Assembly (NCBI GenBank): GCA_031441485.1
Contig: JANOEQ010000108.1
Span: 387-64,386, forward strand
Direction of reading: 5' to 3'
Source of the DNA: Chitinophagaceae bacterium
Lineage (GTDB): Bacteria; Bacteroidota; Bacteroidia; Chitinophagales; Chitinophagaceae
Length of the DNA: 64,000 nt
Program-made: the position numbers and the translations under genes
Shown: positions 35,474-37,186 of the stretch, one piece after another
How positions within the stretch are numbered: the first letter of the stretch is position 1
Layout of the letters: the number at the start of each line of letters is the position of its first letter
Notes under the pieces: model-generated
Seen by the model: the letters and a program-made list of their open reading frames with translations, nothing else
Databases searched by the model: none
Told to the model about the DNA's origin: nothing

Positions 35474-36364
35474 TTAAAAAGGCAAATCGCCGGTTTCTTT
35501 TGTATTATCTATATCGCCAAATATGGGTCTAACATCATTTTTTTCAGCATATTCAATTATTCTTTCACCTTCTGATATATCTACATAGTTAAATTCACCG
35601 GAATCCTTTAATTGCTTCCAGAGTGTATGCTGCCTCTTTAATTTTTTGGGTGGTTCCTGTGTAAGCACAAAATCCTGACAATCCAGTTTGTTCTTTTTAT
35701 ACGTTTCCTTTAAAAGATAGAAAGTAGAAATTTCATTGATGATATGGTTTTGCTGAGATGTCATATCAATTGACTGAACAAATACATCTAATCCATTCTT
35801 TCCAACAAGATCCACTTTTACAGGAACTAACAGATTAGGCACTTCATCAGGAGTTATTGTATGGCCAGAAATAAAGTGGTTCCTGATCTGCGTACTAAAG
35901 CGAAATTTAAAATCGTCGATTGGCGTATATTTCTTATTGCCGGTTTCAGGAAGTTTTTCTTCACCTATCAAATTAGTAAAAAGCTTAATGGCACTTTCTT
36001 CTGTAGCTGCTATGTCTATAGGTTTGGGTTCAGAATATACAATCAGGTTATTCTTATAGCGGCTCAGATAATTAATATAATCAATGGAAAAACTTGGGTC
36101 ACTAACTTTGAAAAGCTGCTGAGAATCAAAAAATAAATTTTCAGATGATTGCATCATCTTTTTCTCTATCCCTGTAATAGAGTCATTAATTACCTTGAAT
36201 TCCTCCTTTTTGAGAAGATACTTTAAGGCATTTAATTTAGAGTGGGAGAACTTACAAAATACAATATCATTATCAAACAGGACAAGGCCGAGAGATACCT
36301 TTTCCTGCGTGACTTTCCTCAAGGAGGCAAATATGATACTGTACGATGCGCTCATCATCATCAT
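35474..36364 (-). CDS. DUF3037-like protein (296 aa)
   Basis: The N-terminus YSIIFASLRKVTQEKVSLGLVLF resembles the DUF3037 opening pattern (y..v.r..P....E.vNvGvvl). Its start codon directly abuts the kinase stop (TAA-ATG). Confidence 0.6.
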   Translation of the reverse strand: MMMMSASYSIIFASLRKVTQEKVSLGLVLFDNDIVFCKFSHSKLNALKYLLKKEEFKVINDSITGIEKKMMQSSENLFFDSQQLFKVSDPSFSIDYINYLSRYKNNLIVYSEPKPIDIAATEESAIKLFTNLIGEEKLPETGNKKYTPIDDFKFRFSTQIRNHFISGHTITPDEVPNLLVPVKVDLVGKNGLDVFVQSIDMTSQQNHIINEISTFYLLKETYKKNKLDCQDFVLTQEPPKKLKRQHTLWKQLKDSGEFNYVDISEGERIIEYAEKNDVRPIFGDIDNTKETGDLPF

Positions 36365-37186
36365 TTACGTGTTTATAAAATATCCTATATAGGTTTCAAA
36401 AGTTTCCCAAGCCGCATCAAACCACTCATCACTGAACAAAAATCCTGCTAAAGCTTTTTTTTCTGATTGAATATCAATCTTCCACTGAGAGGGAATGGCA
36501 GCCAGTATAACATCAATGTCAGCCCGGCAGGCCTGTCTACAAAGGTAGGATTTCCCTCTGAGGCCTGCAAGTGTATTATAAACCTGTCCGGCAGGATGAA
36601 ATAATCTGGCAAAAGCTTCGCTATAGATAAGCGATTCTTCATAGGTGATAGGAATCAACCGGTTCGGGTTGTCCGAATGGTTAAAGCAGGCTTCGTGGTC
36701 AATCGGGTACAGCCGATAGCCGTTCTGACTGCCGCTTAATAGAATATTGTAATTATTATGCGACCGGTCTTCATTTGCTGCCCAGATGTCAAAAAATGAC
36801 AACCGTAGAAAATCATCTTTAAAGCCTGGCGAAAGTCTTTTAGTCAGCAGAGCGATATTATGCTTATCCAGCTCGGTTGAGTGTGGCACCTTTTGTAAAC
36901 CGAAACAGGGATAAGCAAAATGGTTTCGGTTAATCCCCAACTCAGCAGAAATATGCTCATCTTTTACTTGTATACTATTTACCGGAGCAGCATTGAAACT
37001 CCAGTAAGGCAGAAAAGCAGCAATAAGAAATTCTTTATATAACCGGTAAGCCCGTGTAGTCAACCTGTTGTATTTACAATAATAGTATTCCATGTCACTG
37101 GCATGTACTAAAACAGGCCTGTTCATGGTCTCCACAATGTTGGCAGGGTCAAGTGATTCTATCGAATATAATACTGGCACACGCAA
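36365..37186 (-). CDS. HipA-like (HipA_C / HipA_2-type) serine/threonine kinase, 273 aa
   Basis: FDIWAANEDRSHNNYNILL aligns to the HipA catalytic loop (FNWLIGATDGHAKNFSVFL). YRLYPIDHEACF aligns to the HipA Mg-binding Asp region. The N-terminus RPVLVHASDMEYYYCKY resembles the ATP-site strand pair. The start is uncertain: TTG 37186, GTG 37180 or ATG 37126. Confidence 0.65.
   Translation of the reverse strand: MRVPVLYSIESLDPANIVETMNRPVLVHASDMEYYYCKYNRLTTRAYRLYKEFLIAAFLPYWSFNAAPVNSIQVKDEHISAELGINRNHFAYPCFGLQKVPHSTELDKHNIALLTKRLSPGFKDDFLRLSFFDIWAANEDRSHNNYNILLSGSQNGYRLYPIDHEACFNHSDNPNRLIPITYEESLIYSEAFARLFHPAGQVYNTLAGLRGKSYLCRQACRADIDVILAAIPSQWKIDIQSEKKALAGFLFSDEWFDAAWETFETYIGYFINT

Follow-up and report, generated by a model that had tools for sequence, protein, structure and literature searches.

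A 64,000-nucleotide stretch of DNA from a Chitinophagaceae bacterium (GenBank assembly GCA_031441485.1, contig JANOEQ010000108.1, positions 387 to 64,386; hereafter the window) carries on its minus strand two tightly coupled genes, at 36365..37186 and 35474..36364, which code for a HipA-like Ser/Thr kinase of 273 residues and for a two-domain partner of 296 residues whose family is related to DUF3037. It is likely that the two form an anti-phage module of the HipAD type (DS-6/PDC-M66), with the kinase as the toxin and the partner as its antitoxin, which acts in defence by abortive infection and belongs to a divergent subfamily of the Bacteroidota. We favour this reading because of the homology of both proteins to those of HipAD, the conservation of the catalytic residues, the architecture, order and coupling of the genes, and their synteny in 69 of 78 related loci. 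An earlier note, made from the sequence alone, had described the two open reading frames (ORFs), of 273 and 296 codons and tightly coupled, and both were confirmed at these coordinates. It had also supposed that the pairing was undescribed and that DUF3037 had no assigned function. Neither supposition holds: the pair is listed in PADLOC as PDC-M66, and both DS-6/HipAD and the pair beside Retron-Sda1 have been tested (PMC13092281, PMC12548924). Thus, the pairing of a HipA-like kinase with a DUF3037 protein is already described, and the window pair is a divergent Bacteroidota member of it.

The kinase is of the HipA type and consists of the kinase core

The product of the gene at 36365..37186 (minus strand) is the putative toxin and a homologue of DS-6A/HipA(D). 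Translation may start at a TTG at 37186 or, two codons later, at a GTG at 37180; there is no ATG. The 20 N-terminal residues (…SIESLD..NI..T) are kept among homologues, and the long form of the kinase is therefore real. The protein matched the Pfam family PF20613, HipA_2 ("HipA-like kinase"), with an E-value of 1.8e-10 and 41 bits (cutoff 27), but neither HipA_C nor HipA_N, and a match to the PI3/PI4-kinase family stayed below threshold. It also matched phrog_3162 of the PHROGs collection (E-value 1.6e-17) and, weakly, the kinase components of the PADLOC systems PDC-M03 and PDC-M66 (2.6e-5). The HipA-type catalytic loop and the downstream Asp region read in the earlier note are borne out by the PF20613 match and by an alignment of 38 homologues, in which the motifs NEDRSHNNYN (the catalytic loop) and IDH are invariant. 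The invariant residues of this alignment are K38, E52, D133, N138, D140, R141, N145, N147, D163 and H164, and the catalytic residues are therefore conserved throughout.

An AlphaFold2 model of the kinase had a predicted local distance difference test (pLDDT) score of 91.7 and a predicted template-modelling (pTM) score of 0.90. When the model was compared with the PDB using Foldseek, it matched CtkA of Helicobacter pylori (3akk, E-value 1.7e-4) and Shewanella HipA (4pu5, 2.4e-4), as well as PI3K/PI4K and the Legionella HipT (8ezs), the best matches all having a probability of ~1.0. The HipA fold is thus supported at the level of structure too. A sequence-profile search of the PDB returned CtkA as the sole match, with the catalytic loops aligned. 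We conclude that the protein is a HipA-type kinase reduced to the kinase core, without the N-terminal domains of HipA.

The partner combines a divergent DUF3037 domain with a probable nuclease-like domain

The gene at 35474..36364 (minus strand) codes for the putative antitoxin or regulator, a homologue of DS-6B. Its AlphaFold2 model (pLDDT 87.2, pTM 0.52) consists of two well-folded domains joined by a low-confidence linker, the first (residues ~1-135) predicted to be a divergent DUF3037 domain and the second (~145-285) to be restriction-endonuclease-like, of the DUF1829/PD-(D/E)xK type. The relationship to DUF3037, as judged from sequence, is visible only at the level of the family or profile: 9 of 28 full-length homologues of the partner matched PF11236 (DUF3037; best E-value 2.6e-5), one of the 28 matched PDC-M66B of PADLOC (4e-4), and one homologue is named "DUF3037 domain-containing protein" at NCBI.

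Whole-chain Foldseek searches of the PDB with the partner gave nothing below 1e-3 (best E-values 0.018-0.24). The list of weak matches is mostly made up of PD-(D/E)xK nucleases, with BstEII (probability 0.92) and BsoBI (0.90) among them, and also includes bunyavirus cap-snatching endonucleases, Mus81/XPF, XisH, Can2 and EcoO109I. Among the viral models of BFVD, the partner gave full-length matches to phage proteins of 255-287 residues (E-values from 7e-8 to 1e-4), including a "DUF1828 domain-containing protein", and many restriction-enzyme, PD-(D/E)XK and DUF2726 proteins; a phage protein of 125 residues matched one of the two domains (target TM 0.75). A search of the PDB with the partner sequence profile returned the SV40 T-antigen (0.03) and HMG-CoA synthase, which we dismissed as chance-level. 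A HipS-like role for the DUF3037 domain was considered and set aside, as no HipS or HipA N-subdomain was found among the fold matches. The earlier note had recognised no motif in the partner's C-terminal region. On the evidence of the model, however, this half of the protein is probably a restriction-endonuclease-like domain, the predicted counterpart of the DUF1829/PD-(D/E)xK-like domain of DS-6B. The partner has no direct Pfam match to DUF1829, and the DUF1829 call of DS-6B is itself an HHpred assignment at 0.78.

Both proteins are homologous to those of the DS-6/HipAD system

Genes for DUF3037 proteins are strongly associated with genes for HipA-like kinases, the pair corresponding to PDC-M66 of PADLOC, and PDC-M66 occurs in Bacteroidota too (PMC12548924, PLoS Biol 2025). 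The pair found beside Retron-Sda1 acts as a standalone defence against phage Bas51; deletion of its kinase gene abolishes defence and deletion of the DUF3037 gene is toxic, which the authors read as a kinase toxin and a DUF3037 antitoxin (PMC12548924). DS-6 has likewise been validated as a defence system, in a paper which states that Brenes & Laub 2025 made the discovery independently and gave the system the name HipAD (PMC13092281, Science 2026); for the HipAD of E. coli, Brenes & Laub reportedly describe a prophage origin. DS-6, a DefensePredictor system, consists of a HipA-like kinase, DS-6A (WP_000389051.1), and of DS-6B (WP_000210934.1), which combines DUF3037 and DUF1829 (PMC13092281); DUF1829 is assigned to the Pfam clan PDDEXK, and the kinase gene (2415-3164) and the partner gene (1591-2418) lie on the same strand with an overlap of 4 nucleotides (PMC13092281 supplement). 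A catalytic mutant, D139A, of DS-6A loses defence (PMC13092281, Table S11). AlphaFold3 predicts a complex of DS-6A and DS-6B with an interface pTM (ipTM) of 0.76-0.79, and weaker DNA binding, with an ipTM of 0.67 (PMC13092281).

Aligned with hhalign, the profile of the kinase family matched DS-6A at a probability of 96.9% (E-value 2e-10). The catalytic stretches align (FDIWAANEDRS in the window, FDKWILNADRT in DS-6A; IDHEACF and IDHNLSF, respectively), and D139 of DS-6A, the D of NADR, corresponds to D140 of the window kinase. The profile of the partner family matched DS-6B alone at 77% (E-value 2e-5), and a profile of the DS-6B family, built from 40 homologues all annotated with PF11236, at 95.6% (E-value 1.2e-8, 254 columns). 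This alignment is collinear over both domains, covering residues 4-268 of DS-6B with the C-terminal domain at ~150-268. The window pair therefore shares with DS-6/HipAD a compact kinase (249 residues in DS-6A, 273 in the window), then a gene that overlaps or abuts the first and codes for a protein of ~275-296 residues with DUF3037 and predicted DUF1829-like domains, an aligned catalytic Asp, and homology at the profile level from end to end in both proteins. It differs in being chromosomal and from a member of the Bacteroidota, whereas DS-6 comes from E. coli, reportedly from prophages, and the DS-6B family is proteobacterial, and in having a partner that the Pfam DUF3037 model does not recognise. 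With PDC-M66 and the pair beside Retron-Sda1 it shares the same two-gene composition. The Sda1 operon, however, also has an upstream helix-turn-helix (HTH) gene and the reverse transcriptase and non-coding RNA of the retron, whereas the window pair has no conserved third gene.

The nuclease-like fold raises the question of which protein is the effector. The roles could be reversed or shared, the C-terminal domain of the partner cutting phage or host DNA and the kinase regulating or activating it. The resemblance of this domain to BstEII and BsoBI would fit such an arrangement, as would the pattern of conservation within the subfamily, where D185 is nearly invariant and E237 invariant. However, no invariant Lys completes a (D/E)xK motif in the subfamily; the position aligned with K186 of the DS-6B family varies (Q/R/K/H/E), and that family does not conserve D185. 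Moreover, the kinase is the protein required for defence both in the Retron-Sda1 pair, where it is loss of the DUF3037 protein that is toxic (PMC12548924), and in DS-6, where the DS-6A catalytic mutant is inactive (PMC13092281). We regard an exchange of roles as the most improbable of the alternatives considered here. The residues of the partner that are conserved across phyla are P181 and the pair E237-P238.

In PADLOC, the PDC-M66A model matched only residues 115-171 of the window kinase (21.5 bits, E-value 2.6e-5), and PDC-M66B matched neither window protein; PADLOC would probably not call the pair. This shortfall reflects a detection criterion and not a biological difference, the subfamily lying outside current models.

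Coupling and gene order are traits of the family

At the boundary between the two genes (36353..36367, minus strand), the stop codon of the kinase gene is followed by four consecutive ATG codons (TAA-ATG-ATG-ATG-ATG), which span 36364-36353 and open the partner ORF. The sequence at 36367-36362 reads acgTAA|ATGatgatgatg. The TAA does directly precede an ATG, as the earlier note had it, but the zero spacer derived from this is only one option, since the spacer measures from 0 to 9 nucleotides according to the ATG used. Homologues of the partner begin M-x-x-x-YSI, a pattern in favour of the fourth ATG and hence of a spacer of 9 nucleotides; the public gene call, P0001 (295 residues), takes the second. 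Among related loci, the junction lies between -17 and +6 nucleotides in 59 of the 67 that could be scored, the commonest arrangements being +1 (TAAAATG, 16 loci), -4 (ATGA, 13) and -1 (TAATG, 7). Tight coupling is thus a trait of the family and not a peculiarity of the window locus.

Synteny was scanned with one genome per species, giving 78 loci with a homologue of the partner. In 69 of them the ORF directly upstream, on the same strand, is that of the kinase, and most of the others are contig edges, fragments or proteins with the N-terminal domain only; the synteny that the note had proposed as a check is thus borne out. The hosts are Chitinophagaceae, Sphingobacteriales, Flavobacteriales, Prolixibacteraceae and Saprospiraceae, together with a few Ignavibacteriae, one "Azovibrio" metagenome-assembled genome (MAG) and some unclassified MAGs, so that the partner family is almost wholly restricted to Bacteroidota. 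An exhaustive hidden Markov model search of 1.84 billion representative sequences, clustered at 50% identity, yielded 739 partner-family clusters at an E-value of ≤1e-3, 527 at ≤1e-10 and 179 at ≤1e-30, most of them full length, at 275-290 residues. No conserved third gene, whether an HTH gene of the Sda1 type or one like hipB or hipS, was found among the window locus and its 69 syntenic relatives.

The neighbours of the module bear on another explanation, namely that the pair is a purely selfish chromosomal TA islet, with the same biochemistry but kept by addiction and recombination and of no anti-phage benefit to its host. In the window the cassette stands alone, with neither defence nor mobile-element genes nearby; many members of the family lie among housekeeping genes (in a close relative, locus L083, between genes for an MFS transporter and SecA), and islets made up only of TA genes and integrated at flanking core genes have been described (PMC13617665). 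However, phage defence has been measured for two homologous systems, independently of each other (PMC12548924, PMC13092281). Moreover, about 15% of the immediate neighbours in other genomes are restriction-modification or abortive-infection (Abi) genes: the commonest families among 125 such neighbours are HsdR (6), HsdS (5), HsdM (3-6), type IIG enzymes and AIPR Abi proteins, the others being miscellaneous housekeeping genes. A selfish islet without a defence function seems to us rather unlikely, though it is the strongest competitor of HipAD-type defence.

Some individual loci have further genes next to the cassette. In L083 the cassette lies beside a RelE/ParE-like pair: overlapping ORFs of 71 and 67 residues directly precede the kinase gene (6696-7104; also in L084), and the second, as read from its sequence, looks like a toxin of the RelE/ParE type, suggesting TA modules side by side. 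The small upstream ORFs of L081 and L083 were considered as a possible third gene and rejected as locus-specific, those of L083 resembling an unrelated RelE/ParE pair. In L081, the closest relative of the window cassette on a large contig, a divergently oriented pair of genes for an nSTAND1 NTPase and a CHAT protease, of the conflict-system type, lies ~3.4 kb from the cassette (1-3803).

The pair is distinct from HipBA, HipBST and CtkA

With HipBA and HipBST the window pair shares a kinase toxin of the HipA fold with the same catalytic-loop chemistry and, with HipT in particular, the absence of the HipA N-terminal subdomain. However, the locus has neither a HipB HTH antitoxin nor HipS, and its antitoxin candidate is encoded downstream and not upstream, and has an unrelated two-domain fold. 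No ORF for a HipB-like, Xre-type HTH protein was found upstream of the window kinase gene, and no conserved small ORF, nor one similar to the HTH protein of Sda1, upstream of the kinase genes of the family. The kinase is much shorter than HipA, at 273 residues against ~440 for the full-length protein, and belongs to HipA_2 only and not to HipA_C/HipA_N; that it was short and had no HipB-like partner had been correctly seen in the earlier note. We conclude that the pair is not a member of canonical HipBA or HipBST.

CtkA, the best structural match (3akk, TM about 0.5), is also a short, stand-alone HipA-like kinase. It has been described as a secreted pro-inflammatory kinase and not as a toxin neutralised by a partner, and it has no described DUF3037 neighbour.

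HipA phosphorylates GltX and HipT phosphorylates TrpS. By analogy, the target of the window kinase would probably lie in the translation apparatus. In the mechanism that we propose, the translationally coupled, two-domain partner would bind and neutralise the kinase. Once freed, the kinase would phosphorylate an essential host factor, leading to growth arrest and aborting phage infection. It also seems possible that the partner binds DNA and in this way autoregulates the operon or senses infection. The requirement for the kinase in defence, the essential catalytic Asp and the toxicity that follows loss of the DUF3037 protein are known from homologues, and by analogy the copy in the window would be active in the same way.

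Several observations weigh against assigning the window pair to HipAD-type defence. The earlier note had seen a DUF3037-like pattern at the start of the partner. This stands at the level of the family, but the window protein taken alone matched nothing in Pfam (DUF3037 included, at an E-value of ≤1), NCBIfam, PADLOC or PHROGs. Its identity to DS-6B is only about 15-18%, and that of the two window proteins to DS-6 about 15-22%. No clearly conserved D...(D/E)xK triad is common to the partner subfamily and the DS-6B family. The neighbourhood in the window contains no recognisable defence or mobile-element genes; it consists of two-component regulators, a methyltransferase and a photolyase. Scans of the upstream flank for promoters (sigma-70, Bacteroidetes TTTG/TAnnTTTG) stayed at chance level, and the flank is a recombination scar. 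Finally, the HipAD of E. coli is reportedly prophage-borne, and no relatives were found among the viral contigs of IMG/VR; the match of the kinase to phrog_3162 and the matches of the partner to phage proteins in BFVD stand despite this absence.

If the assignment is correct, the analysis extends HipAD/DS-6/PDC-M66, a validated but mechanistically open system, to a Bacteroidota subfamily that is very divergent and, with 739 clusters, large. HipAD-type defence is probably under-counted in Bacteroidota, as the subfamily is invisible to the current PADLOC and Pfam models; the alignments obtained here could seed better ones. The catalytic loop of the kinase, together with P181 and E237-P238 of the partner, all conserved across phyla, are candidates for mutagenesis. 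The window pair opens no new kind of biology. HipA is not mentioned in the preprint of Payne et al. 2024.

Probable acquisition of the cassette by a conserved chromosomal backbone

The two genes are bracketed by damaged ones. Downstream lies a 5'-truncated gene (34964..35404, minus strand), an ORF of 146 residues from a conserved secreted or outer-membrane protein (OMP)-like family. Residues ~16-146 of the ORF correspond to the C-terminal half of full-length homologues, which have a signal peptide and 262-281 residues; 163 metagenome relatives, at 64-85% identity, all match from residue ~11-17 on. The truncation reported in the earlier note is therefore real, while its label of beta-barrel protein is only putative, as the ORF has no Pfam match. 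Upstream of the kinase gene, a non-coding flank (37187..37364, minus strand) without an ORF, not conserved with relatives, presumably contains the promoter. Further upstream lies a truncated response regulator (RR) gene of the NarL/LuxR type (37462..37929, plus strand), whose product of 155 residues lacks ~69 N-terminal residues: the Pfam Response_reg domain is matched only from position 66 to 110 of 111, and the GerE domain is full. A full-length homologue, of 224 residues and 78% identical, is present in locus L089.

The end of the OMP-like gene is found twice. Copy A (34918..35004, minus strand) is still attached to the 146-residue fragment and runs into the downstream sequence; copy B (37365..37450, minus strand) consists of the last 13 codons and the stop codon of the gene (...PIYQFSFNYSLR*) with ~45 bp of downstream sequence, and directly abuts the truncated RR gene, the scar junction being at 37451-37461. 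The repeat is ~87 bp long and falls into two blocks, one 91% and the other 78% identical. Its coding part (39 aligned columns) is 92% identical and its non-coding part 71%; three of the four coding differences are synonymous, and the fourth, at the edge column of the repeat, is nonsynonymous. The scarred locus of the earlier note, with its half gene, truncated RR and duplicated gene end, is thus confirmed, except that the remnant measures ~87 bp and not 72 bp. Scans for terminators at the locus were uninformative, and an Rfam scan of the window returned nothing.

Damage of this extent might mean that the pair is itself a silent or decaying remnant, the upstream scar having removed a promoter or regulator so that the genes are no longer expressed or functional. 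The upstream flank does join a gene-end remnant to a truncated RR, no promoter was recognised in it, and the adjacent genes are wrecked. Against this, both ORFs are full length and retain every residue that is invariant in the family, the partner protein is found identical in independent metagenome samples, and there is no third gene or regulator conserved in the family for the locus to have lost. Furthermore, a lone active toxin gene could not be maintained unless the partner were expressed. We consider decay of the pair very unlikely, and return to a module of the HipAD type in considering how it came to this site.

The backbone around the insertion, comprising the OMP-like gene, an RR, a methyltransferase and a second RR, is intact in seven related loci without the cassette (L085, L088-L090, L094, L096 and L098). 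The RR that follows the full-length OMP-like gene there is 90-94% identical to the one at 34113..34769 of the window; the order further upstream in L089 is an ORF of 223 residues, a membrane-protein/histidine-kinase unit and the RR of 224 residues. DNA similarity of the cassette to its relatives is confined to the coding region (37179-35517), with none in the flanks. As the empty-site backbone is intact in these loci, we conclude that horizontal transfer brought the cassette into a conserved backbone of the chromosome. This and the homology to tested systems uphold the view of the earlier note that the pair is horizontally acquired defence or TA cargo, and the empty-site comparison is a clean natural example of the entry of a cassette into such a backbone. 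The note had also called the pair richer in AT than its neighbours. This is the case for the partner gene, with a GC content of 34.2%, about 3 standard deviations under the gene mean of 42.6 ± 2.8%, but not for the kinase gene, which at 41.6% equals the window mean (41.8%).

The route of acquisition was probably homology-assisted recombination followed by a deletion. In a first step, the cassette would have brought a homologous gene fragment with it on entering downstream of the OMP-like gene, producing a duplication of the Campbell type; a deletion of ~3.8 kb would then have joined codon ~70 of the RR gene to codon -14 of the OMP-like gene at 37451-37461. Besides the window, 7 of 62 other loci (L008, L015, L032, L041, L042, L054 and L075) have the module bracketed by direct repeats, which measure 32-186 bp and are 85-100% identical, as against 4 of 303 controls, which were equally sized, shifted segments of the same loci (odds ratio 9.5, Fisher p 5.6e-4; the sample is small). 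L032 and L008 repeat the 3' end of the upstream gene, with a truncated copy after the cassette; in L041 and L042 the repeat is the terminator hairpin of the upstream gene, and the two terminator copies inside one genome are more alike than copies between genomes. Differences between copies are biased towards synonymous ones; those in the coding part of the L032 copies fall 4/2/15 on codon positions 1/2/3, which implies that each copy was a working gene in a lineage of its own while they diverged. The repeat signature fits an integration of donor DNA assisted by homology and agrees with the "TA islet" idea and with the TA-only islets that recombination has placed at flanking core genes (PMC13617665). 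Possibly, HipAD-type cassettes need no recombinase of their own to move, homology allowing donor DNA with a fragment of a host gene's 3' end to integrate by a single crossover of the Campbell type, a proposal that we put forward only tentatively. On either side of the cassette, integration of this kind would leave a copy of the gene end or terminator, the two copies being diverged. That duplicated gene ends are enriched at the flanks hints at spread without a recombinase and is a modestly new side result.

Other features of the window

Many soil metagenome contigs keep the backbone made up of the OMP-like gene, an RR, the methyltransferase and another RR. In the window, four paralogous RRs of the NarL/LuxR type lie within 10 kb (31879-32553, 34113-34769, 37462-37929, the truncated one, and 40943-41593), with two units of a membrane protein and a HisKA_3 kinase near them. 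A direct repeat of 70 nucleotides (32732-32801 and 38466-38535, 74% identity) is intergenic and adjoins RR genes of this type, perhaps as a regulatory element or leader common to both sites. Beside the truncated RR gene, an intergenic tandem array (38083-38366) comprises ~10-13 units of 21-22 bp, with a super-period of 43 bp repeated five times (87% matches). Its consensus is AAAAGTGAGGTGGTACCTATCAAAAAGTGAGGGTAACCTAACT, with palindrome-like GGTACC / GGTAACC cores; it has no Rfam match and could be iteron-like or a site of regulator binding. Two very large ORFs are present elsewhere, at 12637-20079 (2480 residues) and 52194-57005 (1603 residues). Finally, an ORF for a multi-pass membrane protein of 229 residues (39184-39873) has the lowest GC content of the window (28.7%) and no Pfam match; it lies directly upstream of a HisKA_3 histidine kinase gene, and a homologue with 59% identity occupies the same position in locus L090.

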